A DNA stretch of 64,000 nt from a virus (IMGVR_UViG_3300028886_000047); one strand, 5' to 3'; counted from the first letter of the stretch, positions 4,201-46,029 are shown. Numbers and translations are program-made. The notes: a model not told the origin generated them from the letters alone.

Positions 4201-4730
4201 GTAATGGAAGAATAATTCCTAATTTTAAAATGCTGAATAAAATAGAAGAGGCTGATTAGGAAGTATTAAAGTAGGGAATAAATCCAGAATAGGAACCACA
4301 AAAAGTTAATGAAATTTATGCAAAACACGGACTTCCTATAAAGTATGGAACGGATAATAGATTAACTGGAAGTTATAAAAGATTTGCTGTAGTTCAGGCT
4401 ACTGCTATTGAAGATGTATTTTTAAATAAAAATGGTTTAGCCTCCAATGGAACCCTTACGTTAGTATCTGATGAAAATGAAATTGATAAATATTTAGAAT
4501 AGTTAAAAAATATTACTGGGAAAAAAGATATTGATATGGATAGACCTGGATTATTTACAGGTGATAAAGATATATATAAAGGTTCTATATTTATTCCTAT
4601 AATAGGAGATTTGACGGATGCTATATCTGGTAGTAAAACTGGAAAATTAACCGAAAATAATTATGATGATTATAGAAATAAATGGAGTACTAGAAATTAT
4701 ACAGAAGCTCCCAAATTTGTTAAACAATGA
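1248..4730 (+). CDS. large late/virion-module protein (~1160 codons), TAG-recoded, unknown function
   Basis: ATG 1248, frame 3, continuous to TGA 4728-4730 with many in-frame TAGs and no TAA/TGA. Track ORFs 1833, 2739, 3246, 3720 and 4536 are fragments of this frame. The translation reads as a normal globular protein with a low-complexity PQQNPQQNP stretch. Confidence 0.6.
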
Positions 4731-13447: not shown

Positions 13448-13448
13448 T

Positions 13449-16400: not shown

Positions 16401-19400
16401 TTAAAACACGGAATTAGCTTTATTGATTCTCAAAGTTAGAAAATTATAGATTCTTCCGCTGTAAAAAGAATGAGGAAAGCTAATGAAAATGGGTGGTCTA
16501 CCAAAAGTAATATTATAATAGGAAAAATTGTTAACGGAAAAGAATCTAGAAATTTAATTACTAAAAAAAGTTTAACTGATTGGAAAGTTTATAAAGATTT
16601 CTTTAAATACGCTCAAGAGTTTGGAGGGTTTAATTTAGATAAACTCAATATTAATGGTAATTTTGATTTTGAGTATTTTTTATAGGCTTTAAATGAAAAT
16701 TATAGTGCTATACAAGAGTATTCTCATCTGCAATCTTTAAAAAGAAAGATTAAAGATGAAATTAAGAAAAAATTATTAAAAACTTCTGAAGGTCTAGATA
16801 AAAAAGCTCTCACTGAACAATATAGACAATGGAGAAAAGAAAATAGGCCTGAAGAAACAGAAATAGAATTAGAACAAGCAGTTTTAAATTACGAAACTGA
16901 ACCTGACGAAAGAATTTGGAGAAGTAGAAATGCTTCTTATAAAACTGAAGGGATAGACAATATAACTTCTATTGATGAAATAGAAAAATTAAAACAAGAA
17001 TATAACTTAACAGATTTTGATACTACTTTAGAAAAGAAAAGTGGTAATTTTTCATTACAAATAAATCCAGAAATATCTAGGTATAATACTTTACATTATT
17101 TATATTCTGAGGAAGGATTAAATAGTACAGTAGGTTCTCATATCAATCATAAAGTTCCTTATACTAAAGATCTAACTTTAATGGGAGCTTTAGAAACAGG
17201 ATAGCAAGCTAAACGTAATGTATCAGAATCGGGTGCTAAAAATCAATACACTAGAAGTGACATTAACGGAATGGACAAAAATATGACAATTGCTGTAATG
17301 CGTGATGTAAAGGCCGGAATTTCTACTATTAATGGTATTCAAAATCCAAAAGGAGCTACTGTAATGGATGGTTCTACTATAGGAAATTATGTAACTAGAA
17401 AAGAAGAATTGTATTCTCTTGGGTCACAAAAAGCTGGAATAGAAAATTCAAAACCTCTTGGAGATGATTTAAATCCTAAAACTGGGACCGGAACTATTAT
17501 CAAAACCGCTGTATTTGTACTTACGAATAGTCGTATAAGAACGTCAGAAGCTAACATCATTCTTCATAAACATATGAACAGTATTCCTTGGAGAAATTTT
17601 GACGGAAACTTTTTAAGAGATTATGATGGAAATAATATTAATTATCATCCAGTAATCGTATTTAAACCTTCTGAAGAAAAATATTATTTAAGAACTGACT
17701 TCTAGATTGAAGAAGATGGAGTAACTTCATTTAAAGAATTAGAATTAGGTAATTAGGAACAAGCAAATAATTTATTAAAAGTTGATGTCGGAGGAATAAC
17801 TATAGGAGCCTTAATTAAAGCAGGAAGAGATTTAACTCCTTATCTTAATACAATTGCTGCAATAACTAAGCCTAAGATTATTGGAAATGTTGATGAAGCA
17901 TTTGATACAATAAGAACTACCAGACCCATTTCTAATAATTATGAATTATGGGATTTATTTGGAGGAGCTTATTCTGCTTCTATAAATGAAATGAACGATA
18001 TATCTTATAAAGACGATAATACTTCTTTAGAGAATCTTACTATAGCAGCTCATTCTTGTGGAACTAGAATAAATAGAGATGTAACTAGGCCATCTAATGA
18101 AGATGTATATTTGCCATTAAAAGAAGCTAAAATTGATTGGGTTGTTACAGAAGGAGCTATTAAACAAGGAGCTTCTAATGTAAATTCTACAGATATGTTA
18201 AAAGATATTAATTATAGAGTGACAACTCAACGTATAGCTACAGCAGATATTGGAATGTAGTTAAATCCTGAACACTTAGCAGACAATTCTCATATTACTC
18301 TTATGACTCAGGTTGTTAATGCTTTAGGTTTAAGAGGATTTAGTTCTGACGCTGCTGATAAAGTTTACAAAGCACTTGCTACTTTAACAGATACTTCATT
18401 AGAAGAATTGTTTAAAGGAATTGAATTGAAAAGAACTACCGGGGACGATAGTTAGTTTAAAGAAGCAGTTTCATCTTTGTTATTGAAATCTATAATAGGA
18501 ACCTCTGAAACCGATGGGGATTTATTATCTTCTATTGTAGTCCAACTTAATAAGCAAGATAGAACTGGACATGATTATGATATAATTAGACATAGACTTC
18601 CTATAAGTGACCCCGCAATTCTTAACAAATTAATAAGTAATTTCTCTTCATTAATGACAAAAGCGGGAGTAAGAATTCAGTTCCCAGGAAGTATGAATGT
18701 ACTTGTGCCCTCTGATGGAATATATAAAATACATGGAGGAAAATTGAGAAGTATAGCTCATACTCAAAGATATGTAGAAAATGACCTTATTCCAAATAAT
18801 GAAGAAATTGCTGAATTACAAGAATTACAAGAACTACAAAGAGAACAAAAACCTCTTAAAGGACTTCATGAAATAACTATAGGAGCTTCTTATTTTGTAA
18901 GAATAACAAATAATCATTTTAATTCTGACAATCCTTTATTATCTACTGTACTTGCAGGAAAATCTATAAAGGTTGATGATTTATCAACATATTATCAATT
19001 AAGAGATTTGTTAAAAGGGACTACTTATACATTAGTTGAAGATGTTATAACTGGAAGAGATTTAGCACCATATAATTGTACATTTAATACTAATAAGGGA
19101 ATGTATATGTTATGGGATTTAGATTCAATTAAACATATACATATGTTAGAAAACAATCCAGAAGAAGTATTAAATATATATAGTACATATACAGATGAAG
19201 AAATAGTTAGAGAATTTCATATTAATCCAGAATACTTAGATAGAACTGATATTAAATCTTTTACAGAATCTTTTAAAAAATTAATTAATAGAAGAAAACA
19301 AATAGAATTAAATTCTATAGGTTCTGGAAATAATAATAGTGTATTTATAGATGGACAAAAAGTATTTATCGATAAATCTACTTTAAAAGTTTCCCCCTAT

Positions 19401-22400
19401 GAATTAATTGCTCCAAAAAATTATAAAACTACTTTTGGATTATAGACTGGAGACAATGTTTAGGAAATATCTTAGAATAAGTTATTCTTCTTAAAAAGAA
19501 TGATTGACAATCAATACAGATTAGAAAACGGGCATTGGGTAGATAGAAATCCAATTTCTTCTGATAAATATGACATTATTCTAAAAACAGTTTCAGGAAA
19601 GTCTTATCCAATATTATATAAGTCTGATACAACTAAAATTCCAGAAGGGTTAAGTGTAATCACAGAATAGGATTTTTATGCAAATCTTGATTGGGATGGC
19701 AGTAAAGTTTACAGATTAAATGGAGATGGTGATAGAATTTATGAATTACCTTATCATAAAGATTCTTCTGGAAAGATAGTTTATGATGCAGAAATACTTG
19801 TCGATGAAAATGGAAATGAAGTTATTTATACTGATAAATTAAATTTCTTTGTAAATAAATTACAATTTAATTATGTTGATTTTGGAAAAAATATATTAAA
19901 TCTACCATTTATTTATGATATATTTAAGCAATTAAGTACTTCTAAGAAAAATTCGGTTAAACAATTATCTTCTAATTATTTATCAGAAATTGAACAATTT
20001 AATCAAGTTTCACGTTTAGAAGATAGAATAAATAATGAAAAAGATGAATAGAAAAAATAGGATTTGAGTACTAGATTAGTATAGATTACTTCTGGTGAAG
20101 AATTTAACAAATAGTTAAAACAACAAATATCTGAAGGATTTAATTTAAGAGATTAGTATTTAACCCAATTAAATACTGAAATTTTAGCTGGAGAAATTAA
20201 AGGAAATTATACTGGAATGTTTGCTCAGATAATTAACTCTGCTATTGAAACACATACATCGTTTATTAAATCTTTAGATTATATTGTTTCTAGAACTCCT
20301 GCACAATCACATCAATCGTTCATGCCTATGAAATTGGTAGCATTTGATGAATCAGATGTTAATAGCGCTTATGTAAGTCGTTATCAATTATATTTGCAAG
20401 GTTCAGACTTTGATGTAGATAAAGCTAGTTTACTTGGAAGTATTATACGAAATGGAAGGTATGTTGTATGGAGTCCCTTTATGAGTTTATAGTCTATAGA
20501 ACATTTAAGAGCTTCTGAAACATTACCATTTCCAACTGGAAAACAATTAGAAATAAGAGAAAGTCTTAATAGTCGTGTATATGATAAAATGGATAAACCT
20601 GTTCATTTAGTTTGGCATGATGATACAAGGATAACTTTTACTTTGCCAAATTTTGAATAGGAAATATATTTAGCAAAGAATCAATCTGGTATATGGGTAT
20701 CTAATTTAACTCAAGATATTATGAGAAATTAGATGACTCCAATGGAGGTATATTTAATTGAAAGAGCTATTACAGATAAAATCTCAGAAGGAGAAATATT
20801 TGACGCTCAATTTAATATAAGTCATTTAGGATTTAATGAAAATCGAGTAAAGGATTCTTCTAAATATTTATATGAAAAGGATTTTGAATAGTTTATAAAT
20901 TGTTTTGCTCCTATATTTGATTATAACGAAAAAGGGCAATTAGAATTTAATAAACTTACTGGAAGAGTAAGGCATATAATTGACAATATTGGCAATGAAC
21001 CACTTCAATATGATACTATATCTTACGAAAATTTAACACAAGATTAGTTAAAATAGAAATAGATTAATAATATAAAACAATTATCTATTTTAATTAATGC
21101 TTTAAATTCCTTTGGATAGATTCCAAAAGTAATGTCTAATGATTTAATGACAGCAATTTATAAAACTGTTAATGAACATAATTTATATTTTGTTAATTCT
21201 TTTGATACTAAAGACGCTGTAGTTAATTACATTAGTAGTAACATGTTTTAGATTTCTAGTGATCCAGTAAATTTAGTACAAGCTATGACTTCTGTGGATT
21301 AGCAGACTGATTATGTGAAAGAAGAAATTGCAAATAAGTCTCCGTTAGCTGAACAATCTAAACATTTTGATAAAGGAAATATAATGTCAATATTTAGATT
21401 ATTAAGATTAACCTTATCTGGAAAACAAAATACAGGTATAGAAGCATCTTCATTGAAAGTTATGGAAGCTATCAATCAATATTAGGATGTTATTCTTAAT
21501 TATGGTTCAGACGAAGAACAAAAATCATTAATCAAACCTATAAATATAGGAGGCTATAATATAGGATTAATATGTAATGCTTATTGTAAAAATATAGCAA
21601 ATATTAAATCTAAAGAAGTATATGACGCATTACAAGAAATCGATAATGATAATGACCAAGCTATATGGTTATCAGCATTCTTAAGTCTTAGTACTGACAA
21701 CGCTAAGGATCCTACTCTTGCTAAAATAAATGCTAATCCAGAAATGATTGGACTTTATAATTCCGGATTTGTGTTAGGATTGCCTATAAGTTTTTTATCT
21801 AAAATAATAATGTCTCCTACAGGAATGGCTATTGCCGATGTTCAATAGGGGGATATATTTCTGGGTTATAATAGTTCCAGAGATATAGGAAGAGTTATAA
21901 ATTATATTAAAGAAGGTCCTAGACTCAGTCCTAATATGACTACATTAGAAATATTAGGAAAAGCTATTCAACTACATAATCCCGGAGAAGTTACTATTTT
22001 TAATCTAAATAAACAACTTATTAGAAATTACTGGGATTAGTCTTAGTTATTAACAGCAAGAAGAATTATTGCATTAGCCAAAAGTCTTGCTTATGGTAAA
22101 GAAGGAGAAAAAATAGAATATAATATCCCTACTATTGAATCTAGATTATCTAGAGATATCTAGGTAACAAGACGAAGAATTTCTGGAATTAGTAAAGCTT
22201 TAGAAGCTAAGAAATAGCAAATAATTGAAAAAGATACCTTAGGAAGAAAACATAAAAAACTTGATGAAGATGTTACTGCATTAACAGCGTCTTTAGAAGA
22301 ATTGAATACAAAACTTACTGAATTACAAGATATTAAAAATGAATATAAAATAACTCAAACTATTCCTCAAAGTAGAAATGAAGGAGATTAGTATGATTTA

Positions 22401-24323
22401 TATGAAAAATACCTTGAAAATTATAATTCTATTAAAGATGGAGAACAGTCTGATTCTTTGAAAAAATTATTTTAGGATAATAAAGAATATATACAGAATT
22501 CTTCTAACTTCAAAAAGACTATTTAGGATATTGAAAACTGGTTAGATACTATTGAATAGGTTCAAATGGATGAAGGATACACAGATGCTGAAGGAAATAA
22601 ATATAGCACTGTAAAAATATTAGAATAGTTAAATGAATTTGCTTCGGAAATGTCCTTAATACGTCCAAATCTCAGCCTCAATCAACAACTTCCTAATTCT
22701 AAAGAAAATCAACTTTCATTTATTAAAAAATTTGAAAATATGATAAATGATAGAATTACCTTAGGAAAAGTTGAGAATGCAAGTAAAATCAATGAAATAT
22801 AGGATTTCAAAGACTTTAACGAGCGTAAAGGGATTGAGGGATTAAATATTTCTATATCTGAATTTGTATGGGATGAAGAATATAGAAATGCTGCAATAAG
22901 AGCATACGATTCTATTAAATTTAAAGTGAATGCTTTAGATGTACTAGTCAAAGTGCCTCATTATTTTGGATATTTAAAAGCTTGTGATGCTTTATATCAG
23001 TCATTAGCTTATCAGTCAGTACAATATAGAGAACAAGACAGAATCTTAAGTAAAATAATCATAGGAGATTTAAAAATAAAAGCATCCAAAGATATTTAGT
23101 CAAGATTGAAAGTTGCTTCTAGGTATATTTCTAGACAAATGAATAATATGTTCTTATTAGAACAAAATATAGAATTAACTATTCCTAAAATAACTGATGG
23201 TAAAGTTGATACTTCTGTAAAAGTTCCAATTAAATTAGGTACAAAAGAAGGAAATGAAGCGTTCAAAGAATGGATGGATTTTGTAATTATTCCTCAGTAG
23301 AAATCTAAGTATAAATCTAATAGATTTTTAAATGAACTTTCAGAGGCGGCTTATCATAAATCTGATAATCATAATACAATTATAAATTATACTACTAACA
23401 TAGATAGTATGACAAATAACCCTACCGAAGTTACAAAATTTGCTGAAATAACTGAGGGATTTAATAATTTGCAATCTAAAACTATAGGAGATTTGCCGTT
23501 AGTAGAAGCTTTCTTTTATTATGATTTAATAGCTTATGATAGATAGCCAGGTCAGTTATCATTAACTCCGATTTTTAATAAATTAGTAGCATTAGGGAAA
23601 ACTAAAGTTATTTCCGATTATGTTCAATTTGTATCAGACTTGGATTAGGGAGGCAATATTATTTTAACTTTAGATGAAAGTTAGATAGATGAAATTAAGA
23701 GATTTATAGCTCCTGTTATTTCCATTTATGCTTTAGATGAATTTGATGAAGAATATGGGTGGGTAAAAGATCCAGAAGACTAGCAATTTTATCTTATAAA
23801 GAGAAATCCTAAGCCTAAAAATAATAAAAACGATGATTTTGGCGCAATGGACGATCCTAATATTGATAATCCAGAAATAGATATTGAAGGAATAGGTCCT
23901 GATGGTGATATTAATTAGGAAGAAAATCCTGAAAATCCTCAATATTAGCAAATTACCTTGAGTTCTAAATTAGCAGAACTTGAATGGGAGCCTGGAGTTC
24001 GTAAATTCGAAAGAATTACAGATTCTGGAAATTTAAATAGCCCTTATATTGAAAATTTTATAGTTCAAGAACAACAAACGTTATTAGAAGGACAGGGAAT
24101 AATTACACCTAAAGAAATAAGATTCGGAAATGATTCAATTACATTAGATGATGGAAAACCTAATATTCCAGATAATATCAGAAAGAGATTACAAGAAATT
24201 ACTGGACAAAATAACATAGATGATTTAATAGTAACTAAAGTTATAGTTGAAGGCTCTTCTAGAGAAACTGTAATTGATATAGATACTACGAAAGGAAATT
24301 TAGAAAACCCGTGTAAAGGATGA
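13449..24323 (+). CDS. giant late-module protein (3624 codons), TAG-recoded, unknown function
   Basis: ATG 13449 lies 1 nt after the previous TAA. Frame 3 is open to the TGA at 24321-24323. I checked codon by codon across 20460-22060 and 13446-14700 and every interruption is TAG. Track frame-3 ORFs 14418, 14712, 14910, 15678, 16470, 17271, 17991, 18477, 20217, 23106 and 23958 are fragments. Confidence 0.55.
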
Positions 24324-24373
24324 TAGCATGTGAAATAAATAAAAACTCGTTTGAATACCAGACATTGAAAAAT

Positions 24374-25375
24374 ATGTCTGGTATTTCCGAGTATTCTTTA
24401 GATAGTTATATATCTACATTCTAGACAAAATTTAATAGAATGCCTAAGTTAGATGAATTACCTAGAGTTAACTCGGAACCTTATTTAGAGAAAGTTTTAG
24501 GAATTAAGAAATTATCTAATATAAGGACTATTAATACTAATAGACTACTAGAATATACAGGAACAAATTCTGTAGAAGAAGCAAATATTAAGTTAAATTC
24601 TATATATAAAGATTTAGAAATTACTTTAACTCCATTTTAGAGTTTTACTTCTATTGAAGTAAGACATAGGCCATCTGTATATACATCAATTAAAGAGCCT
24701 TTAAATATAGAAGAATTCAAATAGGATGGAGCTACCATTTTATCTAAACAATTAGATAAAATGTAGAAACTGTATGGGATAAATATAATTCCTGTTTCTA
24801 GTGATGAAATATAGGAATTAGGAATTCCTAATGGGTCTTAGGTTAAGGGATTTGTGAAAAATGGAAATATTTATATAAATATTGAAAATTCTACAATGGA
24901 TACTAAAGTACACGAATTAATGCATATATTTCTAGGAGGAATAAGATATTCTAATCCAGAATTATATTTTTCATTAGTTAATCAAGTAGAATAGCTCCCT
25001 AGATATTAGGAATTTTCAGAAAGATTTCCTAATAGAACAAGAGGTGATATTAACGAAGAAATATTTGTTCAAGAGTTTGCTAATTATTTAACTAAATCTC
25101 CTAGTATATTTGATAATTTTGAAAATACGAGTGAATTAATGTATGAAATATACAGGAATATAGATACATTAATAGATGGAAATTATAGTGTTAAATCTTT
25201 ACAAACTTCAGCGTTTGGAGAAACTTTGGAAAATTTATATAAAAATTTACAATCAGAAAATATAATTAATAAACAAACAGGTTCCTTAGATGATTCAACT
25301 TTACATAGGACACTTGCTAATGTAAAAGAAAATTTAATGAAAAAGAATTTATTGGAGGAAAGATGTGATGGCTAA
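24374..25375 (+). CDS. late-module protein (333 aa), TAG-recoded, unknown function
   Basis: Frame 2; first ATG after the upstream stop. In-frame TAGs at 24422 and others. Ends TAA 25373-25375. Track ORFs 24440 and 25139 are fragments. Confidence 0.5.
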
Positions 25376-25442
25376 TTGTAAATATATATTAGGATAGAGA
25401 GTTTTTAATTCAGAAATATAGTTAGACGATTATCTTTCTGAA

Positions 25443-28400
25443 ATGAAAAATTTATATAAATAGTTTGGAGATGAAGTATTTAGTAAATCTTGGACTCCTG
25501 TATAGCAAACATATAGACAAAAATTATTTTCTTAGAAGGAATAGCTAGAAAAAGCTATCAAATCAGGAAAAATAAAGCTAGAAATTTCTGATATGGAAGA
25601 TTTAGATTTAGATGGAATAGTAGATTCCGCTGAAGGAAGAGGTGTTACTTCTATAATGTAGGAATTAAAAAGTTTAGATAATAAAAACGTATTTCCTATT
25701 TTTAACAAAGATAATTATTGGAATAATATAAGAGGAGAATTACGAGACGGAAATTGGAATAGTGATAAAATTAAAGATTTTATTCCATATATATTTGACG
25801 AAAGAGACTCTGAAGGAAATTATATAACACATCCTATAACAACAGAGGAAGAATTTAATCAGATAAGAAATAGGATAGAATCTATGTGGAAATAGCAAGG
25901 ATTAATAGGAACCGTTGTTCACGATATATTTGATATTTTATATTCAAATTATACTACTGAAAATGGAACTAATATTAAAAATTTGCCAAAACAATAGTTT
26001 AAAGAGGAAATTAAAAGAATATTATCTAAAAAACCAGAACCTAATGCCTATCGTAAATTATTAAATGAATTTGGAACCGATTTAAATAAAAATAATAGTT
26101 TTTTAGAGAGTGTTATAGATAATGCTCTTAAATTTAATGAGGATTTGAAACAACAATTTGATCCTAAAAATGAAGGATTAATGGTGCTTCCCGAAATTAC
26201 TATAAAAGGTATGGCTACTCTAAATAATCAATTATTTAAAGTAATAGGACGTATGGATATGGTAGTAATTAAACCTGATGGTGAAGTACATATAATCGAT
26301 TATAAATGTTCTCCTAAAGAATATCGAAATTATAACGAAGCAAAAAAATTAACTTTTAATTATCAATTAGCAGTATATAGAAGAATTCTACAACAATTAG
26401 GAATAAATAAAGATCAGATTCATTTATGGGTAGTTCCGATTTAGTTTACTAATTTTGATATAGATAAATCTAATAATTTAGTAACTTTAGATGGAGTAAA
26501 ATTACGTGATGGCGCTACCTTTGAAGAATTAGAAGTATCTTCTCCTACTGTAAATGCTCATAAGTATCAAATAGTTGAAGATAACTTAAATAATTCATTC
26601 AAATATGAACACGTTGAAGATGTTTCTGATGAACATATTCTTGAAAAAACGAGAAATTGGATAAGAAAAGTATTTCCTGAATATTCTAAAATTTCGGAAG
26701 TAACCGACGAGAATGTATTAGATTTTTGCAAAAGAAGAAAATGTGTAGTATAGGATGAAAAAACTGGAAAATGGGGATTTAGACGATATAAAAATGCTGA
26801 TTTGAAATATGTTAAAGATACAGAACAAGAAGTAATAAATGCTATCAAACAAGAGTGGGAAAATAATAGATAGAGAAATTTAGAAAGTACTAAATCTATA
26901 AAGAGAGAATTAAAAAAAGCTCAAAAAGAAAATTTAGGCAGAGGAGCTTTGTTTAATATTACACTATATTCTAAAGATAAACAATCTTAGAAAACTCCTG
27001 ACTGGGCACAGCAAATTCTTCAAAAATATGCTAATGAAGATTGGACAGTAGAAGAAACTCCAGAAGCTCTTGATTCTTTAGGAATAATTCTTGTTAGAAA
27101 TTTAACAACTGATAGAATCGATGTTATTAAATTATCTTCTACATACGATTTAGATGCTGAAATAGGTTTTGGCAATAATAGAACAACATTATTTGGAAAC
27201 TTTGTGTCTGACCATGTTGCAAAGAGTTAGCCTAATTCGTTAGTAATGCAAAGTACTAGAGGAAATGTAGAACTTATGGAAACAATGTATGCTTTAAATT
27301 GTATGCCTAGTATATTTAATAACGATAATGCGTTTTTAGGAGAAATTCAAGTAATATCTCATTATAATGAAGGAGGAGGAGCTAATAATAAATCTTTATT
27401 GTATAATTTTTAGAAATTAATGAATTATTCTAATAAAGAAGATTCGCCAGAAGTTAATTATTTTAATAATAAAAATATAAAAGTAGCTTCATTTGTACAA
27501 TTAGCTTAGGATACTTTAACTAGAATAATTAATAATAATCGAGGAACAAGATGGAACAAATTTGAGGAAGCTTCTAATAATTTACACAAATTTCAAGGTA
27601 ATAAAGAACAAATACTTTCTGAATTAATTAAATTAAAACAGCAAATAGAAAACGTTCCAGGATTTGAATATTTAGCCAGAGATGGAGTGATGACTTCCAT
27701 ATATGATGATTATAATTCTCCAGAAAAAAGGTTATATGCAGAAGTAATGTTAGCTATAGGAGAAATAGGAGGGTTAACTTATCAACAACAAACTAAAGAC
27801 CACGCTAACATTTTTGAAGGAAACAGTTTAATAAAAGCTTTTTTATGGGATGGATTTAATGGAAATCTTACTGACAACCCTGGAACTCTTCGAAGTGAAA
27901 CCTTAAATCAAGCTTCACATCTTGTAGATGTTGCTTATTAGAATATTCGTGATTAGTTATTCAAATATAAAAATAATTTAGAAAAAATATTAGATGAATA
28001 TAAATAGTATAAGGGACAATTTGCTAGTTAGAAAGATTTATATGAGAATTTTTATAATAAAGATATAACTGATGATTTAGTTTTTAAAAACCCCTTTGTT
28101 CCAAATAACGGATTAGATGATATGGAAAGGAAAGTTTTAAAAGCTATATTGTTGGATATTGCTCATAGAAGAAATTCTACAATTATTAATGAAGATACCT
28201 TGAGATCCGCAATTGAAAATGACTCTGATTATCTTTTAGTTCCATTAATTAAAAGTACTAGTAAACCTGTAACTAAATCATTAGGTGATTTTATGTCTAG
28301 AACTAGAAAGTTCTTAATGGGATTTAATATTAAAAATGCGAAAGATTCTTTAAAGGAAAAGTTATTAGATTTTACATCAAAAGAATCTATAAATGAGCCT

Positions 28401-30257
28401 AATAGGGAGGAAACTATATGGGAAATGACTAATTCCATAGATATTAATCCCGAAAATAGAAAAGAAAGGATAACTTTAGGAGGAGGCATAGAAAATTTTG
28501 AAACTAATTTAGAAATGTTGGCATTAAAACATGAATATGCTTATATTTAGAAACAAGAAGTTAATAAAATATTGCCATTTATGAAAGCCCTTTCAATTCA
28601 TTTGGCTAATCAAGGAATTATATTAAATGATAATTTTGAAAATGACCTAAATTATATCTAGAATTTTATAAAAGCTAAAATTCAAAATAAAAAATTATAG
28701 GATATTTAGTCGTTAGATAATTCATTTGTTTCTGATTTAATGAAAGGAACTTCAATATTAGCATTAGCGTTTAATCCCAAACAGCTCTATCAAATAATAG
28801 ATGGATTGTGGAAAGATATAAGATTAATTGTACAAAATGCTCATCGAGAGGGTGATGTAAATATGTCATTTAAAAATTTTAAGGATTCATTTTTTTGGAT
28901 AATACAAGATGTTGCAAAATTTAATGGAGAATTATCTATAGGAGAAGCCTTGAATCAATTATATGGAATTAATGATATGGATATAAACTAGCTTCCAAGT
29001 AGATACGCTAAAGATACTTATGGAACAGATAGGCTTCAAAAAGCTATGTTTAGATTTGCGTCAAGGCCTGACTATTATAATCGTATGACTATTTTTGGTG
29101 CACAGATGAGAGGAGACGGTTGTTTTGAAGCTCATTCAATAGTTGATGGTCAGTTAGTATATGATTGGACTAAGGATAAACGTTTTGATATATTTGCTAA
29201 ATATAAAGGAGATATATCTAAAGTTCCTACTTCAGAACAAAATAAATTCAGACAATAGCAATCTTTATATAGTGCTATGGCAGACGAAATGGTTAAAGAT
29301 GGAACTTTAAATCCTGATGGAACTAAATTTGTTAAAGATATGAAAAATCCTAAACCCCTTCCAAAAGCTTATACAGTAAAATAGTCTGAATCAATGAAAG
29401 CATTAGGAGATAAAACTTATGGTTATTATGCTTCTGAAAAGAAATCATTAATACAAAGTTTTACCTTAGGAGCTATTATATTTCAAATGAATACGTTCTG
29501 GTCTTCCAAAAAGAATCAATATTTCTCTGGAAGAGGTTATACTTAGGAAGGGGAATTTGTTGATTATGTTGAAGAAAATCCAGAAGATCCAGAACATCCG
29601 ATAGAATATTGTTAGAAATACAATAAAGAAACAGGAGAAATGGATATAATAAGAAAAGATGTTGAAGACACTGGAATCCCTTATAAAGTGTGGAAAGGTC
29701 GTCCTCAAGAGGGAATAGTAATAACTCTTAGTCATATGATAGCTAATATAATTACTGGAGAAAGAGATTATGAGGGAATACGTTTTTGGGACCCATATTG
29801 GAATGATGATGACCCCTATCTTAGAAAAATGTATAGAGCAAATCTTAGACAATTATTAGCAGACTTACTTGGAATGATATTGATTGGTATGATAATATCT
29901 CCCAGTCTAGTAAATGCCGCAAATAGTTATGCTAAAGAAACGGGTTCTGAAACCATAGGAGAAGCGACAATGGGATATTTAGCCACTTTATCTGCGGGGA
30001 TGTTACAAACATCTACTGATGATTTTAATTTTACAAAATCAGTATTTGGTAGAGGTATTCAATGGACTCCTTTTTCTTTACAATCTGGAACTAGATTTTT
30101 AACTAATTGTGGAAATTGGTTATTTGGAGATTAGGATTTTTATGATACATTAACAAAACAAATAGCATTTACAAGAAATGCTAAACCTATTATGAACTTT
30201 ATAAAAAATGAAACTCTCGGCAGAGACATAGGAGATAATGGAAAATCTAAAGAATAA
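25443..30257 (+). CDS. large late-module protein (1604 codons), TAG-recoded, unknown function; hydrophobic segment near the C-terminus
   Basis: Frame 3. ATG 25443 is the first ATG after the frame-2 stop. Open to TAA 30255-30257 with only TAG interruptions. Track ORFs 26145, 27687, 28122, 28740, 29046 and 29640 are fragments. Confidence 0.55.
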
Positions 30258-30282
30258 AAAAAAATAACGGAGAACTGAACTC

Positions 30283-30324
30283 AAAAAAAAAATAAAGGAA
30301 GAATGATATTCATTCTTCCTTTTT
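30283..30324. terminator. bidirectional intrinsic terminator: A-run, perfect 10-bp inverted repeat ggaagaatga/tcattcttcc (30297-30319), T-run
   Basis: Seen directly. The hairpin is flanked by aaaaaaaaaataaa upstream and ttttt downstream. It sits between convergent genes ending at 30257 (+) and 30310 (-). Confidence 0.6.
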
Positions 30325-31020
30325 CCATATATATTTTCCAGCTGTTTTATATTTTCCTTTACAACATAATGAAATACTAGATTGAGAAATTCCCGTAATA
30401 CTACTAGCTTCTGAAATAGATTTATAATTTTTTAAGAAATTTCCAGTTAAGTCGTATTGTTTTACATTATAAGTATTATATTTATTTGCTTTTTCTAAAA
30501 CATTTTTTAAAGTATCTCCTTCTAATAGAGCATAACTCCAAATATAATTTTTATATTTTGTACGTTCTCCATTCAAAACTCTATATATCTTTGATGGATT
30601 AAATCCATCAATTGATGCCTAATTAGCATTATTCCATTCTTTTATAAAATTTCCTTTTAAATCATACTAATATACTTTTTTTCTAATAATATTTTTCTTA
30701 TCATTTACATTATCAGGATTAAACTCTTTTACCCAATCTTTTAAATCTCCTATATCTATTTTATATTTTGAAAATATTCTTAATACTTCCGGATTTTTCT
30801 AAAATAATTCTCTACTTATTTTAAAATTTTTACATAAAGTATGTAATTCTTTTTCAATAATTTTATCTTCTTTTTCCTAATCCAATGTAGTTTTAGGATT
30901 AACTATTAAATTAACTAACTAAACATTTTCTCTTGCGTTTTTAAATGAAGAAAATCTTTTATAAATATTAGAAGTGATTCCAATTTTATAACAAGTCTAA
31001 AAATCAAATAAATAAATCAT
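30310..31020 (-). CDS. T5orf172 (GIY-YIG-like) domain plus two NUMOD1 DNA-binding repeats; homing-endonuclease-like; requires TAG readthrough (5 in-frame TAG)
   Basis: ATG at 31020-31018. N-terminus MIYLFDFQTCYKIGITSNIYKRF matches the T5orf172 pattern. Two repeats Y(Q/TAG)YDLxGNF(I/L)K and ISEASSITGIS match NUMOD1. In-frame TAGs at 30619, 30667, 30799, 30877, 30919 and 30997. The track shows only the 3' fragment 30310..30576. Confidence 0.6.
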
Positions 31021-31220
31021 AAAAATTTAAGTTTAAAAAATTATTTTACCTAATTTATTATTCCCATATTTTTATCAAAATATTTTATTATTTTAATATA
31101 TTCTTTCCTTTAAAATTTTAATTTTAACATATCTAAAATTATCTACAATCGATTTTTATAGTAAAGTTGAATAATTTATCATCTAAAAATTTTTAGACTC
31201 TTATAGAAAAAAATAAAAAA

Positions 31221-31260
31221 ATAAGGCTGTACTATCAAATTAATGATAATACAGCCTTAT
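31221..31260. terminator. bidirectional intrinsic terminator: long imperfect hairpin ataaggctgta-c-tatca / tgata-a-tacagccttat flanked by A-rich and T-rich runs
   Basis: Seen directly. It lies between the minus-strand module (flotillin gene ends 31274) and the T5orf172 gene. Confidence 0.6.
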
Positions 31261-31273
31261 TTAATTATTTTTT

Positions 31274-32716
31274 TTATTTATTTGTATTTACAGGAATTTC
31301 TCCTTTAATATCATAATTCTTATTTACCTTAGCATCGTATGTTTCAGCTTTCATTATATCAGACATATCAACTCCTGTTGCAGATTTAACTACATCAAAT
31401 GTTTGTTTGATAACAGCAGGAACATTTCCAGATACTGTAGAAGCATCTCCGCCATATATATTCATGTTATCAATAGCACTAATTGGCTTAGCAACACTCT
31501 CGGCAACATTAGGAAGAATCTTGGTAATCATTTCAATGACAGCTGCACTACCATACTTCTTGAATGCTTCAGCCTTCTTTTCCATTGCTTGAGCCTCAGC
31601 AAGACCCTTAAGCTCAATTGCTTTAGCTGAAGCTTCACCTGTCTGTGCTATTTTATAAGCTTCTGCCTCTGCTTCTGCCTTAATACCTATAGCCTTCTGC
31701 TCATAAGAATATCTTTCTGCCTCTGCCTTTCTTTTTGCCAATTCCAAATCAGCTTCTGCCTTCTTAGAAATTGCATACTTATCAGCATCTGCTTTCTTGT
31801 TAACCTCTGCTTCTAATTTATTCTGCATAACTTTAACTTGTTCTGCAGCAAGCTCCTGCTCCTTTTGAGTTCTAATAATCTGAGCCTCAACAGTTCTGGT
31901 ATTTACTTCCTTTAACTGCTGCTGTTTCTGAATTTCATAAGCTGCATCAGCAATAGCTTTCTTTGTATCACTTTCTTTCTTTAAATCTGCTTTCTTTATT
32001 AACAGTTCATTCTGTCTTTCTGCAATCTGAGTTTCAGAGAGTACTTGAGCATCATTAGCAAGTTTTGCATTTTCTGCTGCAACTATTGCAATTTCCTTCT
32101 GTGCAATAGCTTTGGCGTTAGCTGCTTCTTTCTTAATCTTCCAAGTGTTATCAGCACCCATATTCTCAATAAGGCCTTGTTCATCAGTAACATTTTGAAT
32201 ATTACATGACAAGATAGAAATTCCTAACTTCTCCATATCTTTTTGAGCTTTATCCTGAACATTATTTGAGAAAGCATCTCTGTCATTATTAAGAGATTTT
32301 AAATCTACTGTGCCAATAATCTCTCTCATATTACCTTGCAGAGAATCTTTTAATTGTGTAGCAATTTGAGTAACATTCATATTCAAGAAATTCTTTGCAG
32401 CTAATCTAATTCCAGCTAATGTATTAGTAGGAGCTACTTTAGCAACAGCATCTACTTTTACATTGATAAAGTCTTTAGTCGGAACAGGGACATCTGTCTT
32501 AATGTCAACAGTAATCTGCCCAAGATATAGCTTATCAAGTCTTTCAAAGAATGGAATCTTAAATCCACCCTTTCCAATAAGAATACGAGGTTCTTTACTA
32601 AGTCCTGCTATTATGTAAGCCACGTTAGAAGGAGCTTTTACATAAGAAGCAAAGAATAAAACTACTAACAAAATTGCAACAACTGCAATAGCAATAAACA
32701 TTAAATTAATTGTCAT
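31274..32716 (-). CDS. SPFH/band-7 flotillin-like membrane protein (N-terminal TM helix, SPFH domain, Ala/Glu-rich coiled-coil repeats)
   Basis: Hydrophobic N-terminus FIAIAVVAILLVVLFFA. C-terminal AEAEAEAYKIAQ...AEAQAMEKKAEAF repeats are typical of FloT/YqiK-type flotillins. Confidence 0.65.
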   Translation of the reverse strand: MTINLMFIAIAVVAILLVVLFFASYVKAPSNVAYIIAGLSKEPRILIGKGGFKIPFFERLDKLYLGQITVDIKTDVPVPTKDFINVKVDAVAKVAPTNTLAGIRLAAKNFLNMNVTQIATQLKDSLQGNMREIIGTVDLKSLNNDRDAFSNNVQDKAQKDMEKLGISILSCNIQNVTDEQGLIENMGADNTWKIKKEAANAKAIAQKEIAIVAAENAKLANDAQVLSETQIAERQNELLIKKADLKKESDTKKAIADAAYEIQKQQQLKEVNTRTVEAQIIRTQKEQELAAEQVKVMQNKLEAEVNKKADADKYAISKKAEADLELAKRKAEAERYSYEQKAIGIKAEAEAEAYKIAQTGEASAKAIELKGLAEAQAMEKKAEAFKKYGSAAVIEMITKILPNVAESVAKPISAIDNMNIYGGDASTVSGNVPAVIKQTFDVVKSATGVDMSDIMKAETYDAKVNKNYDIKGEIPVNTNK

Positions 32717-35625: not shown

Positions 35626-36192
35626 TCATTTCATTCCTTTAATTCGTTGAACAAATAAATCTGTTTTCTTGTCTCTTTTCGGAACTGTGAAAATTCCTTC
35701 AGTATGTTCTCTTAAATATTTAAAAAGATTTTCATTGTGTTCTGGGAACCATATTCCAGGCCAAAATAGATAACAGTGATAAACATTCCAATACTTTTTA
35801 ACTGCTTCCTTTACAGAAGTATTTCCGTTCATTCCTGCAATAACTATTTCATTGGATTCAGAATATTTTATGTTCTTTTCAACTGTGTTCCAAGATACAC
35901 ATATTTCATACGGAATTTTCAATCTCCATAAGAGCTTAAGAATTGTTGGTTCGATACAAGCTCCTGGAGTCCATTGAACACAATACATAGGATAATCTCC
36001 TCCATTTCGTTTAAAATATTCTTCATAAGGACTATTTAAAACGCACTTAAAGATAACCTTTTCAATATCTTCTTTATTTCGATTTATCCAAATCTTAGTA
36101 CGTTCAACAGCTTCTTTGCCACGTTTTTTCACTGACATGGAACCTGTTACAAAGTCAAGTTGGTCATCTACTAATAAAAGAATTTTACTCAT
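35626..36192 (-). CDS. PncA-like paralog lacking catalytic Lys/Cys and metal ligands (probable pseudo-enzyme)
   Basis: Alignable to 34974..35549 (VDDQLDF, CVQWTPGACIEP retained). DWHP becomes KCVLNS, HCV becomes YCV, VPKG is lost, GDYCV becomes GMNGNTSV. Confidence 0.5.
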   Translation of the reverse strand: MSKILLLVDDQLDFVTGSMSVKKRGKEAVERTKIWINRNKEDIEKVIFKCVLNSPYEEYFKRNGGDYPMYCVQWTPGACIEPTILKLLWRLKIPYEICVSWNTVEKNIKYSESNEIVIAGMNGNTSVKEAVKKYWNVYHCYLFWPGIWFPEHNENLFKYLREHTEGIFTVPKRDKKTDLFVQRIKGMK

Positions 36193-36679
36193 GTTGTAAT
36201 GATTTAACAGTTTCTGAAATTAATTTTCCATCTGCTGTGGGATAAATTTCTTTAACTGACTTAATAACTTTACCCATTTCCTTTTGAGTAAACCCATTTG
36301 GATACAATCCATAGACAGCCTCTTGGATTTTCTCTTTAGAAATTTCTGGAGGGAGAAGTTCTTTTAGATATTTCATTTGTTCTTTATACATATCCGCCAA
36401 GTCTTTACGACTATTAGCTTCATACATAGAAACTTGTTCTTCTCTTTCCTTAATTAATTTTCTAATAATCGAAAGGTCTAATTCATTTATCCAAATTTCA
36501 ACCTCGGTAGCAGGGTCTTCAAATACTCTAAATTTAAATCCTGTAAGTTGTTTGCCTTCAGGTTTAGGTTTTTTAGAAGAATTATTTAAAAGTAATTCAG
36601 CTTTAATAGCTCTATAAGCCTCTTTAGCAGCTCCGTTCTTTTCTAAAGTTGCTATTTTAATTAGTTTGTCTATATCCAT
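36185..36679 (-). CDS. GatB/YqeY-domain protein
   Basis: C-terminal ...MGKVIKSVKEIYPTADGKLISETVKSL resembles the YqeY family. Confidence 0.4.
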   Translation of the reverse strand: MDIDKLIKIATLEKNGAAKEAYRAIKAELLLNNSSKKPKPEGKQLTGFKFRVFEDPATEVEIWINELDLSIIRKLIKEREEQVSMYEANSRKDLADMYKEQMKYLKELLPPEISKEKIQEAVYGLYPNGFTQKEMGKVIKSVKEIYPTADGKLISETVKSLQHE

Positions 36680-40244: not shown

Positions 40245-40521
40245 CCTTTATAACTCTAATTATACAATTTTGTCCATAAAGAGACCCTTCTATACAACAA
40301 CACTTTTTGGAAGGAGAACAATAATGAGTCCAAAATTCAAAATCATCATCTTTTTTCCATCCAGCTTCATCCAAACAATTAGAAAAAAGATTCCAAGATA
40401 TATTTGGACCTAAATCTATTTCATCCTCTTCTCCAGAATCTATGTCATGTAAAGCATTCATTATTGCTGATTTCATATATTTTTCAGCATTTTCTATATC
40501 TGTTTTAATATATTTATTCAT
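40234..40521 (-). CDS. hypothetical protein
   Basis: Track ORF. Its ATG overlaps the TGA of the HNH gene. Confidence 0.4.
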   Translation of the reverse strand: MNKYIKTDIENAEKYMKSAIMNALHDIDSGEEDEIDLGPNISWNLFSNCLDEAGWKKDDDFEFWTHYCSPSKKCCCIEGSLYGQNCIIRVIKDEN

Positions 40522-41240
40522 TTATTTAAATATTTACTTAAATTTTTAACTAAAAGAGAAAGTTCTTCTAAAGTTGCATTATTTTTTAATGTGTTTGCTC
40601 TTTTAGAAATAACCCATACATTTCCTTTAATATAACCTTTAGTAGAATCTATTCTATCTATAGAATAAGAATTATCCTAAGCACTTCCATAATGTGAATC
40701 TAATGGTATTTCTAATAATGGACATGTCTCTGGCAAAGTTATATCAGATGGTTCAATATTAAAATCTAAATTTTTATTCTAAGCTCGCTATTTGGCAGAT
40801 CTTATTAACTACTTAATTAAACTTTCTTTATTTAAATGCCTAGTTTCAATATTTTTTAAATTTTCCTAAGCCCTATATTCATCGTTTAATCTTTTTTCTC
40901 TTCTTGCCAATTTTCTCTACTCATTTCTTTTTCCATCTGATTCATATTTTTCTTTACAACATTCCTTGCACATAGCTCTATATCCGTATTTTCCTGATTT
41001 CATTTTATGAAATTCACTAAACGGTTTAAATTCTCCACAATGTGTACAAGTTCTTCCAGTAATTCCTTCATTTGGATCTAAAGTCTATTTATATTTTACA
41101 ATTAGACCATAATCTGTTAGTATCTTTGATACTGTATGTCTATCTAAATTTACTTTTTCTCCTATTTTAGTTAAAGATAAATTCTACTCTTTATATAAAG
41201 ATATTATTTCCTATATTAATTTATTATTTATTTCTTTCAT
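40518..41240 (-). CDS. HNH (HNH_3/I-HmuI-like) homing endonuclease with N-terminal HTH and zinc-binding cysteines; TAG-recoded (8 in-frame TAG)
   Basis: ATG 41240-41238 to TGA 40520-40518. With TAG read as Q: ...ETCPLLEIPLDSHYGSAQDNSYSIDRIDSTKGYIKGNVWVISKRANTLKNN matches HNH_3. All three stop codons break this region in the track, leaving a 740-bp gap with no ORF. CTHCGEFKPF...MCKECC cysteine cluster. Confidence 0.65.
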
Positions 41241-41263: not shown

Positions 41264-41923
41264 TCAATGCACCCAGAAGGTAGGCAATTCCCCATTAGGT
41301 AGTCTTGAAATATCTGCAGAAAGAAGCACTCTAGTACAGAACGGCTTAGCTCCTTTCTCCATACATTGTCGGAGTACTGATGCTACTTCTTCTGCAATAG
41401 AATCAGGAGCTTCTACATTCCATTCATCATGACATTGCAGACATATTAAAACTTTATTTTGATAATTATTTTTTAATATCCATTTAAAGAATAATATGCC
41501 TGACAATTTTGTTGCCATTGCTCCTCTATTTTGTATTCTGTAATTAATAGAATCTTTTTGAATATCTGTTTTAAATTTATTCCATTGTCCTAGCCAATAC
41601 ACTTCTTTACTATAAGGGTCATCACTTTTCATACTTTGATATGCTTCCCACCATCCAGGTTGACTTGTAAAATCTCTAATAGCTTTCCATTTATTGTCCC
41701 AATCTTCTATATGTGCTCTATGTCCAGTTACTGGATTCATTAAAATATATCCACGTTTTATTACCTCTTTACGACAATAATCTTGATATTTTTTAACTCC
41801 AGGGAAACCTTTCATATAAGAATCATAAATTTCTTTAGCTTCCTTTGGGTCTAGGCCATTGTTTTGTACCATAGTGGAATCATTTCCTCCGTAATTTATT
41901 GCGACAAATAGATATAACAACAA
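41264..41923 (-). CDS. polA: family A DNA polymerase, C-terminal part (rest of motif B AINYGG, motif C LQCHDEW)
   Basis: ...FVAINYGGNDSTM continues motif B, which is broken at the end of ORF 43034..44710. HDE motif C is present. Confidence 0.7.
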   Translation of the reverse strand: MLLYLFVAINYGGNDSTMVQNNGLDPKEAKEIYDSYMKGFPGVKKYQDYCRKEVIKRGYILMNPVTGHRAHIEDWDNKWKAIRDFTSQPGWWEAYQSMKSDDPYSKEVYWLGQWNKFKTDIQKDSINYRIQNRGAMATKLSGILFFKWILKNNYQNKVLICLQCHDEWNVEAPDSIAEEVASVLRQCMEKGAKPFCTRVLLSADISRLPNGELPTFWVH

Positions 41924-43045
41924 AATATCTATCGGACTATCTCATAACCATATACTTATAAGTACTTAGGTCCGGAATGCTTAAACTGGTTATTAAGAGA
42001 CTAAATCTCTCCAGTAGTCTCTGCACCTCTCGAAGTTGTATCTTCGATTTGGCTCATGGTTGGCCCTGACACTGCTTTCCATGAATTCGTTCCGTTTGCA
42101 TAAGAGAGTTTCCAACTCTTAGGAGCTCGTTTTAAATAAATACCTTTATATGGTGTTCCATCAGTACAATGATTAGCTATTTTACTTGGGTCCAATGTTT
42201 TTCTACCATTAGACCTTAATTTTAAAGGTAAATCATTATATTCCGATTTACTATATTCCACTAAATCTGATGTACACCAAAAAGTATTTAGCCAGTTTTT
42301 ATTTATATCATATACAACAATATATGCTGACCTATCTTTTATTTTTTGAGCATTATTCATATGTACTGCTTTCATAGCAGCACTTACTCCATTTTTTTTA
42401 GGCTTACGCATATTTTTCGTTTGTTCTTCGGTCATTTTTATTCCTTTATTCCAGGCTTTCATGCCTTTATAATAACCTCTTTTTTCGGAATATTCTTTAA
42501 TAAATTGTTCGTATTCTTCCGGAGAAAGTTCCTCTTTTTTCTTTCTCCACCATTCTTTATGTGTTATAGAACTTTTTTCACAAGAAGAAATATTTAACAT
42601 TGGAGAAAAATTTGGATTTGGATTTTCATTATAACCATTATTATAACTATCAAACTTTTCTATATAAAAAGCTTCTCTATCCAATAAAATATTTTTATCT
42701 TCTATTATCTCCAATATTTCACAAACAAAACAATCAGTTCCGAACTCATTCCAATCTTGTTGTAATGATTTACAATGATGTTTTTGTGTCTTTAATTTTG
42801 ACACATGTTGTTTAAATCTTGACATAAATGATTTCCAAGTACTTCCAACATATACCATATTGTTTTTAGTATTGTAAATCCTATAAATGCCTTTTAATTT
42901 TAAATTGTCAATTTCTTCTGATTTAATTTTTACTTTCATAATATTTTTATTTTAATTCCAAATAAAAATATTAATTTAAGGCATAAAACAAAAGGCATTT
43001 ATATTTAATTTATGTTAAAATTTGTTTTGTCATTTACTCAATGGA
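41924..43045 (-). mobile_element. insertion interrupting polA at motif B: putative group I intron (or free-standing HEG cassette) carrying a GIY-YIG endonuclease
   Basis: Exon 1 reads ...YRQAAK then stops after SIE. Exon 2 resumes ...AINYGG. A 312-aa GIY-YIG ORF with its own start lies between, with ~80-90 nt untranslated flanks. Confidence 0.45.
42001..42939 (-). CDS. GIY-YIG homing endonuclease (standard code)
   Basis: N-terminal KGIYRIYNTKNNMVYVGSTWKSFMSRFKQH is the GIY-(x10)-YVG motif. It sits inside polA. Confidence 0.7.
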   Translation of the reverse strand: MKVKIKSEEIDNLKLKGIYRIYNTKNNMVYVGSTWKSFMSRFKQHVSKLKTQKHHCKSLQQDWNEFGTDCFVCEILEIIEDKNILLDREAFYIEKFDSYNNGYNENPNPNFSPMLNISSCEKSSITHKEWWRKKKEELSPEEYEQFIKEYSEKRGYYKGMKAWNKGIKMTEEQTKNMRKPKKNGVSAAMKAVHMNNAQKIKDRSAYIVVYDINKNWLNTFWCTSDLVEYSKSEYNDLPLKLRSNGRKTLDPSKIANHCTDGTPYKGIYLKRAPKSWKLSYANGTNSWKAVSGPTMSQIEDTTSRGAETTGEI

Positions 43046-45709: not shown

Positions 45710-46029
45710 TGTTTTGTGTGCATAAATTCATATAAAAAGTTAGAAAAAGTTTGAGCCATTTCCTCAGAAAATTCAGTATTATAATACCATTGAAAAGAAT
45801 GAATTAGTTCGTGATAAAATGTTCTTTCCATATCTTCATCAGTCTGGTCATATACTTCATTTTCTTCCTCAACTTTTCTACCCAACTCTATCTCATTTCT
45901 TGCCGGAGAAAAATCTCCAAATCTGCCATCCTCTAATATATCTTTCTGAATAACTTTAATAGTTTTTCCACCTGCTATTTTAAACTCATTTGGAATATTC
46001 ATAATAATGACTTTAAAGTTTTTCCACAC
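45706..46029 (-). CDS. small HExxH metallopeptidase-like protein (YHELIHSF)
   Basis: A single HExxH motif. Located immediately downstream of the sigma factor gene. Confidence 0.3.
   Translation of the reverse strand: MWKNFKVIIMNIPNEFKIAGGKTIKVIQKDILEDGRFGDFSPARNEIELGRKVEEENEVYDQTDEDMERTFYHELIHSFQWYYNTEFSEEMAQTFSNFLYEFMHTKQ

Follow-up and report, generated by a model that had tools for sequence, protein, structure and literature searches.

A junction between TAG-free and TAG-recoded gene arms in a probable crAss-like phage

Introduction

Some crAss-like phages read the amber codon TAG as a sense codon in part of their genomes. In the TAG-recoded crAss-like phages described by Yutin et al. 2021 (PMC7886860) and Borges et al. 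2021 (10.1101/2021.08.26.457843), replication genes use the standard code and the structural and lysis module is recoded. The maps of Borges et al. 2021 show structural and lysis genes as one alternatively coded unit beside standard replication genes, and recoding was proposed there to act as a timer. The early-standard, late-recoded reading of such genomes is therefore already published. According to Peters et al. 2022 (PMC9523058), who used proteomics, TAG encodes Gln in crAss-like phages. Here, we describe a 64-kb stretch of viral DNA (IMGVR_UViG_3300028886_000047; 28.7% GC), hereinafter designated the window, in which a TAG-recoded plus-strand arm and a TAG-free minus-strand arm meet at a junction with two terminator-like hairpins. 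Very probably, the window covers the site at which the two arms of a large, only partly amber-recoded crAss-like phage genome converge.

The window resembles the published phages with TAG recoding (code 15) in its convergent arms, in the confinement of TAG to the late arm apart from a few endonuclease genes, in the likely decoding of TAG as Gln, and in a flip of GC skew at the junction. It would also share their logic, in which recoding delays the synthesis of late proteins. Unlike those phages, it has a PolA that is at most 44% identical, carries a TAG-coded endonuclease gene in the convergence gap, and has yielded no suppressor tRNA in the 71.7 kb that were searched, namely the 64-kb window and 7.7 kb beyond its right edge, out of a genome of about 150 kb.

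Results

Codon usage of the two arms

The plus-strand arm (1-30257), hereinafter the late (virion and cargo) arm, consists of six open reading frames (ORFs) that are open only if TAG is a sense codon. The ORFs encode proteins of 404 (1-1251, open at the left edge of the window), 1160 (1248-4730), 2906 (4727-13447), 3635 (13416-24323), 351 (24320-25375), and 1629 amino acids (25368-30257). The last of these contains 30 in-frame TAG codons and a PD-(D/E)XK nuclease-like region (phrog_1218, PF12705), and ends with a TAA stop at 30255-30257. ORFs of at least 100 amino acids cover 100% of the arm with TAG read-through versus 49% under the standard code, and TGA read-through brings no gain. Altogether, the six ORFs (10,085 codons) contain 189 in-frame TAG codons (18.7 per 1000) and no in-frame TAA or TGA. 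Three of them stop at TAA and three at TGA, while TAG serves as a stop in none of the six. The end of the TAG-recoded module at 30257, as given in the preliminary description of this DNA, is thus confirmed. Public gene calls already use TAG read-through, with products of 1629, 351, and 3635 amino acids.

The minus-strand arm (31274-64000), hereinafter the early (replication) arm, has the opposite codon usage. Its 37 core genes (8,064 codons) contain no in-frame TAG and no TAG stop, with 17 TAA and 20 TGA stops; at the rate of the late genes, ~151 TAG codons would be expected. In-frame TAG is absent from both polA pieces, the ribonucleotide reductase (RNR) gene, the ligase gene, and the other core genes, as well as from ~19 more early genes in the 7.7-kb right flank, which also lack TAG stops. 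The out-of-frame TAG frequency is similar in both arms (29.8 per 1000 in the late arm and 25.4 in the early arm), indicating that the difference reflects selection on the reading frame rather than base composition. The arm ends where the preliminary description placed its end, with a gene for a flotillin/SPFH protein (Band 7 and Flot; 480 amino acids; 31274-32716), which is the last TAG-free gene of the arm and has its stop at 31274-31276.

Because the early genes lack TAG, they are read identically under both codes. "TAG-free", meaning that TAG is neither sense codon nor stop, is therefore a better term for them than "standard code". The proposed split into standard-code early genes and TAG-using late genes holds for the two arms, with the qualification that the early genes are TAG-free and that two TAG-coded endonuclease genes form islands inside the early arm. 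The GC skew switches from +0.2 to −0.2 near 30 kb, where skew is inseparable from coding strand; published crAss-like phage maps show a GC-skew flip at the terminus.

The junction and its hairpins

Transcription of the two arms converges at 30258-30309, and the code changes at 31021-31273. Both positions fall within the same 1-kb gap, as had been described, but they do not coincide. Specifically, the gap contains a minus-strand gene of 236 codons (30310-31020) with six in-frame TAG codons, the first at codon 8. Since this gene needs six TAG read-throughs, the code boundary is one gene away from the convergence point. Its longest standard-code ORF has 88 amino acids, and no in-frame TAA or TGA occurs in the 236 codons, in a gene set of 24% GC. 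The gene had been described as similar to homing endonucleases, and domain searches agree. The product contains an N-terminal T5orf172/MUG113 domain of the GIY-YIG superfamily and two NUMOD1 repeats, with Pfam scores of 50.2 bits for NUMOD1 (two repeats), 28.8 for an I-HmuI NUMOD-like domain, 28.0 for MUG113, and 24.5 for T5orf172, all above the cut-offs. A nuclease domain joined to NUMOD-type repeats is the anatomy of a free-standing homing endonuclease, and such an activity is predicted for the product. Upstream of the gene lies an AT-rich leader of 198 nt (31021-31218, minus strand), which forms the code boundary on this strand and is presumed to contain a promoter; its sigma-70-like matches are at consensus level only and no more than expected by chance. 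Since a scan for sigma-70-type promoters gave 91 sites versus 99 expected by chance, no promoter is claimed.

The gap also contains two strong inverted repeats with A- and T-runs (30294-30322 and 31219-31262), as previously noted for 30283-30324 and 31221-31260. Hairpin 1 (30283-30322, minus strand), which is terminator-like, comprises an A/T-run at 30283-30293 and a stem-loop at 30294-30322. The stem-loop consists of 13 perfect base pairs around a 3-nt loop, with folding energies of −16.9 kcal/mol on the plus strand (z score −5.3) and −16.2 kcal/mol on the minus strand (z score −2.7); it is the longest among the window's perfect hairpins that have at least three G-C pairs. In the minus-strand sense, the endonuclease gene's last four codons, together with its TGA stop, make up the 5' arm of the hairpin, and the stem is followed by UUUAUUUUUUUUUU, a 10-nt T-run. 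In the plus-strand sense, the hairpin starts 37 nt past the last late-gene stop and has a weak tail (UUUUUCC). Hairpin 2 (31219-31262, minus strand) has 19 pairs, lies 11 nt past the stop codon of the flotillin gene, and forms a terminator-like end of the early arm. Its folding energies are −28.5 kcal/mol on the plus strand and −34.4 kcal/mol on the minus strand (z scores −10.5 and −11.9, respectively), placing it among the three strongest of ~12,800 50-nt folds. Past the stem, the minus strand has a T-run and the plus strand a T-rich tail.

Bidirectional intrinsic terminators between convergent operons have a stable stem flanked by an A-run and a T-run, which gives a U-tract on either strand. 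Similarly, both hairpins of the window have an A-run upstream and T-rich sequence downstream. Compared with such terminators, both are asymmetric, their minus-strand versions having the better stem and tail. A terminator scan calls them, with 13 and 19 pairs and T-runs, only on the minus strand. Both hairpins thus fit the anatomy of an intrinsic terminator, a G-C stem followed by a U-tract, and are predicted to function as such, preferentially on the minus strand.

The layout in relatives bears on the role of these hairpins. The best GenBank matches of the window's PolA come from MT835470.1 and MT835492.1, both unannotated records from human faeces. MT835470.1 (117.4 kb) resembles the window in its colinear early arm (PolA 43% and ligase 42% identical), in its giant late genes, which lie on the strand of TerL (phrog_6681) and portal (phrog_6547), and in a strong hairpin in its gap. 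It differs in using the standard code and in its GC content of 36%, and it has no tRNA gene. The 62-bp convergence gap of this genome holds one strong hairpin (31947-31990; ATGGCCTGTA... stem) followed by T8, with a surrounding fold of −38 kcal/mol.

MT835492.1 (121.6 kb, 29% GC) is recoded in the same way as the window. With TAG read-through, its ORFs cover 86% instead of 43%. Its plus-strand arm (678-63291) is essentially TAG-free, while all but one of the listed ORFs of its minus-strand arm (63721-121526) have 1-128 TAG codons. Its helicase is 50% identical and its late proteins are 21-28% identical to those of the window. Like the window, it has a TAG-free early arm, a TAG-recoded late arm, and a strong T-run hairpin at the convergence (63672-63712, T10, −34.9 kcal/mol); unlike the window, it has only this one hairpin and no endonuclease gene was seen in the gap. 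No endonuclease-like ORF was found at the junctions of these two distant relatives, in which small ORFs were not domain-searched.

Because the standard-code MT835470.1 and the TAG-recoded MT835492.1 each have one strong junction hairpin, the presence of a terminator-like hairpin is independent of the code. The preliminary description had viewed the hairpins as bidirectional terminators guarding the code boundary. The hairpins are indeed strong, but they are called on one strand only and a counterpart stands at a standard-code junction. The terminator therefore appears to be a feature of the module layout in the lineage and not a guard of the code boundary. The additional hairpin of the window, hairpin 1, probably belongs with the inserted endonuclease gene, and what remains would be ordinary terminators of convergent modules.

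Relatives found through TerL (L016-L018; P0107) are recoded at TGA, with 10 TGA codons in TerL, and are thus uninformative on a TAG suppressor. Within the lineage, TAG recoding, TGA recoding, and the standard code thus appear to replace one another, a pattern also reported for Zeta crAss-like phages.

Amino acid at TAG

In alignments with the late proteins of MT835492.1, Gln shows the strongest enrichment opposite TAG (3.3-fold overall; 4.3-fold at sites next to an identical column), followed by Glu (2.1-fold). In two close homologues of the first late protein, TAG is exchanged with CAG or CAA, and is also kept as TAG. Within the early arm, the endonuclease encoded at 56031-57140 has four internal repeats, in which TAG aligns with Q in the motif G-Q-G-C-P-K-C. 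MT835470.1 was also tried for this purpose and rejected, as its alignments are too divergent (Q at 9 of 133 aligned residues). Taken together, these comparisons lend moderate support to Gln as the likely amino acid at TAG.

Search for a suppressor

No Rfam family was found at the gathering threshold on the whole window, and none at E ≤ 1 on 29.5-45.5 kb. In relatives identified through the helicase (65-74% identity), tRNA genes form a block 6-10 kb upstream of the helicase gene, where the early arm begins, on the early strand. The block of one relative (L020) includes a tRNA(TCA), an opal suppressor, and among 80 IMG/VR loci a tRNA(CTA) was seen once (L075), 6 kb upstream of the helicase gene. 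In Zeta crAss-like phages, too, the replication block is reported to begin with the tRNA block. The preliminary description had postulated a phage suppressor tRNA expressed late. No tRNA gene was found in the window or the 7.7-kb flank, and the position of the relatives' suppressor tRNAs at the head of the early arm argues against late expression.

MT835492.1 similarly has a tRNA block upstream of the helicase gene, with tRNAs for Asn, Asp, Thr, Met, Tyr, and Ala only. Rfam searches of this genome (L102; 12157-12221 and 12473-12540) gave a sixth tRNA that ARAGORN had missed (45 bits, loop CTTGTAA, Thr-TGT), and a weak HDV-like ribozyme match directly after tRNA-Met (28.9 bits, E 0.11, under the gathering score). 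Ribozymes of this tRNA-associated, HDV-like (theta) type have been reported in recoded gut phages.

Endonuclease genes

Besides the gene in the gap, two endonuclease genes inside the early arm contain in-frame TAG. A gene for an HNH/EndoVII-like endonuclease (40518-41240, minus strand; 240 amino acids, nine TAG; phrog_3322, 1.8e-34, and phrog_1035) starts 23 nt past the C-terminal polA piece, and a gene for an endonuclease with DUF723 repeats and a nuclease domain (56031-57140, minus strand; 369 amino acids, 10 TAG; phrog_559, 1.3e-85) starts 2 nt past its upstream gene. Given these short distances, both genes probably lack a promoter of their own and are presumably co-transcribed early. TAG accounts for ~70% of Gln-type codons across the three TAG-coded endonuclease genes, versus 37% in the late genes. 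The early arm of MT835492.1 likewise has a GIY-YIG/NUMOD-like ORF with TAG.

Internal TAG is missing from other endonuclease genes, namely a GIY-YIG gene at 42001-42939, a GIY-YIG/NUMOD1 gene at 60808-61728, and a strain-variable NUMOD1 gene. The last (285 amino acids, no TAG) is carried by a 1.2-kb insert that distinguishes locus L002 (3769-4979) from L001, ~6 kb past the right edge of the window, and represents a strain polymorphism. The insert splits a 232-amino-acid gene into genes of 192 and 74 amino acids and is present in two assemblies and absent from the JGI one. The gap gene at 30310-31020 is present in both near-identical contigs (L004, L005).

The GIY-YIG gene at 42001-42939 separates the polA halves and is followed by the TAG-coded HNH gene. 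It is the only early-arm gene in which TAG is the standard-code stop, and read-through adds 15 codons up to a TAA (41956-42003, minus strand). The public call is the 327-amino-acid read-through form. A similar pattern, with another stop shortly past a TAG, has been described for Zeta crAss-like phages. A group I intron in the split polA was considered and rejected, as Rfam gave no match. A further ORF (62741-63301, minus strand; 186 amino acids) has one in-frame TAG. It is a single gene in the ENA call and two genes (101 and 107 amino acids, GTG starts) in the JGI and Logan calls, and may be a fourth TAG-containing gene of the early arm.

In TGA-recoded Agate phages, a recoded group I intron endonuclease lies inside an early gene, and recoding was proposed to hold back the endonuclease until late (Borges et al. 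2021). Like those phages, the window has a selfish endonuclease that carries the reassigned stop in an otherwise stop-free early region. In contrast to the Agate case, the codon is TAG, the genes are three free-standing ones of different endonuclease families, no intron was found by Rfam, and internal TAG is absent from three more endonuclease genes found in this phage population.

Hairpins past late-gene stops

Stable plus-strand hairpins are located at 1314-1363, 4770-4814, 13503-13543, 24345-24392, 25402-25449 (weaker), and 30294-30322, that is, 20-65 nt past each late-gene stop. The internal ones lie inside the coding start of the next giant gene and have no U-tracts. Past the stops at 1251, 4730, 13447, and 24323, the energies are −19.7 to −24.1 kcal/mol versus a window mean of −4.4 kcal/mol (standard deviation 2.9), and random spans reach such energies in at most 1% of cases. 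A like hairpin stands at ~9 of 23 late-gene ends of MT835470.1. These hairpins could be signals for processing, stability, or pausing, and may represent an undescribed cistron-boundary signal of the lineage.

Gene content of the arms

The early arm encodes a split PolA, with an N-terminal piece of 558 amino acids (43034-44710) and a C-terminal piece of 202 amino acids (41264-41872), a sigma-70 family factor (45999-46838; regions 1.2, 2, 3, and 4 above the Pfam cut-offs), a DNA ligase (47404-48663), the large subunit of RNR (51148-53463), and a YqeY/GatB-C-terminal-like protein with a tRNA-related domain (36185-36679), all on the minus strand. Further core genes encode an NMNAT-like protein, metallophosphatases, and exonucleases. 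The sigma-70 factor suggests redirection of host RNA polymerase by the phage, so that early and late expression might be controlled at transcription as well as by recoding. The flotillin/SPFH protein is an unusual phage cargo. A role of the YqeY/GatB-like gene in a code-change module was considered and dropped, because the standard-code relative MT835470.1 also has YqeY.

The late ORFs are 21-29% identical to giant ORFs on the TerL/portal strand of MT835470.1 and MT835492.1. The 404-, 351-, 1160-, 2906-, and 3635-amino-acid proteins have no PHROG match. In the 3635-amino-acid protein, residues ~2290-2340 (20157-20489, plus strand) contain the motif IVSRTPAQSHQS...LQGSDFDVDKAS, i.e. RTP...GSDFDVDKA (DxDxD). 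This motif resembles the catalytic DxDxD of the double-psi beta-barrel of RNA polymerase beta-prime and of crAss virion RNA polymerases, in a region with no PHROG match and no sequence match in the PDB.

Genome and lineage

The sequence is 99.6-100% identical across independent assemblies from three sources (ENA, JGI, and Logan). In the ENA assembly (ERZ27256887), the phage is present on two contigs, k141_1258196 (117,654 bp) and k141_324866 (32,480 bp), which overlap by 141 bp and suggest a genome of about 150 kb; window position 1 corresponds to ~59,571 on k141_1258196. The overlap, equal to the assembly k-mer, falls at ~57944-58084 of the window, within a gene for a 509-amino-acid exonuclease-like protein just upstream of the endonuclease gene at 56031-57140, and the break of the assembly graph there is probably due to strain variation.

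The PolA and the two-arm layout of the window are of the crAss-like type. PolA is 39-44% identical to those of crAss001 and related Bacteroides crAss-like phages, which are the best matches. Among the Crassvirales signatures, layout and PolA fit, and the genes for TerL, portal, and the major capsid protein lie outside the window. The 1629-amino-acid late protein is shared by only three GenBank phage records, and the 404-amino-acid protein at the edge has only two homologues, both on short contigs. No close relative of either protein was found in IMG/VR. A helicase search gave a relative at 97% identity, present only on contigs of 2-3 kb, and the window's phage was absent among the best 120 matches of a TerL search. 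The lineage thus appears distant from the characterised crAss-like families, with few representatives in GenBank.

Discussion

The partition of TAG between the two arms suggests how the two parts of the genome might be expressed. By avoiding TAG, the early arm would be readable by the unmodified translation machinery of the host, and its products would be unchanged after a code switch. The giant virion and cargo proteins of the late arm, with TAG at 1.9% of codons, would be made only once amber suppression is active. The most likely source of suppression would be a phage tRNA with a CUA anticodon, which, to judge from relatives, would be encoded outside the window in a tRNA block at the head of the early arm, and such a suppressor would be made early or in mid-infection rather than late. 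As for the junction, we propose that its ancestral form had one intrinsic-terminator-like hairpin, corresponding to hairpin 2, and that a homing-endonuclease gene with its stop built into hairpin 1 was inserted between hairpin 2 and the end of the late arm. Translation of the three TAG-coded endonuclease genes would be tied to the recoded state, whatever the timing of their transcription.

Several points weigh against this proposal. The timing of the code switch is wholly inferred, and the label "late" or "virion" derives from synteny with relatives and from the DxDxD-type motif. Gln stands opposite TAG at only 12 of 126 sites aligned with MT835492.1, where counts are small. ARAGORN found no tRNA in the window and loci L001-L005, including the 7.7-kb flank, and no release factor or aminoacyl-tRNA synthetase was found among at least 40 window proteins. 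MT835492.1 is TAG-recoded, yet a scan of its 121.6 kb, made for tRNAs only, found no CTA tRNA, so that a canonical suppressor encoded by the phage is not assured; in the survey of Borges et al. 2021, a suppressor was detectable in only ~40% of TAG-recoded genomes. Finally, the stopping of each arm's polymerase by the hairpins is a prediction, and the U-tract of hairpin 1 on the plus strand is poor.

These points bear on two other accounts of the code. It is conceivable, though quite unlikely in our judgement, that no temporal switch exists and TAG is decoded all through infection, by a host suppressor, a factor delivered with the virion, or a weak release factor 1, with recoding serving as a device against host or competitors, whose translation it would corrupt. 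The early genes would then avoid TAG only for reading in the first minutes or in varied hosts. Yutin et al. (PMC7886860) proposed such an anti-defence role and noted that recoding and suppressor tRNAs match imperfectly, and the failure to find a suppressor or release-factor gene in 71.7 kb, or a suppressor tRNA in MT835492.1, points the same way. Against this, the total lack of TAG from at least 37 early genes is expected if suppression is absent for a time, suppressor tRNAs do occur in relatives' tRNA blocks, and the search covered less than half of the ~150-kb genome. The lack of a detected suppressor is also the only observation in favour of a uniform code 15 throughout the genome, perhaps shared with the host, with the lack of TAG in early genes a compositional accident, or of late ORFs that are decayed pseudogenes. 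This account is extremely improbable in view of the counts (0/8,064 versus 189/10,085 codons at equal out-of-frame frequency), the length of late ORFs (up to 3,635 codons free of TAA and TGA), the same partition in MT835492.1, and the near-identity of the three assembly sources.

The role of hairpin 1 can also be viewed differently. It lies past the stop at 30257 just as strong hairpins lie past the stops at 1251, 4730, 13447, and 24323 and a weaker one past 25375, and MT835470.1 has the same feature. Hairpin 1 might thus be the last of a series of post-stop hairpins acting in RNA processing or stability, or as a pause site for a phage polymerase, and not mainly a junction terminator, with the endonuclease gene overlapping it by chance. 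We consider this rather unlikely, because hairpin 1, with the endonuclease stop within its stem and a minus-strand T-run of 10 nt, is built like a classic intrinsic terminator of that gene, while the internal hairpins of the late arm lack U-tracts.

If the two-arm reading with a code switch is followed further, the reassigned codon may act as a translational lock on three unrelated endonuclease genes, which would be made only after the switch, and the gap gene may be a terminator-insulated cassette that brought hairpin 1 with it. We put this forward tentatively, as a possibility that is more doubtful than the partition itself. TAG-locked endonuclease genes in early operons, together with the regular hairpins past late-gene stops, are moderately new leads from this locus.

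In practical terms, the case is of use for gene calling, as standard-code annotation breaks the 30 kb of the late arm into fragments. The window provides a clean case of two compatible dialects within one genome, in a crAss-like lineage that has been sampled poorly. While it opens no new question, it adds an instance for the published idea that stop-codon recoding times the synthesis of late proteins.

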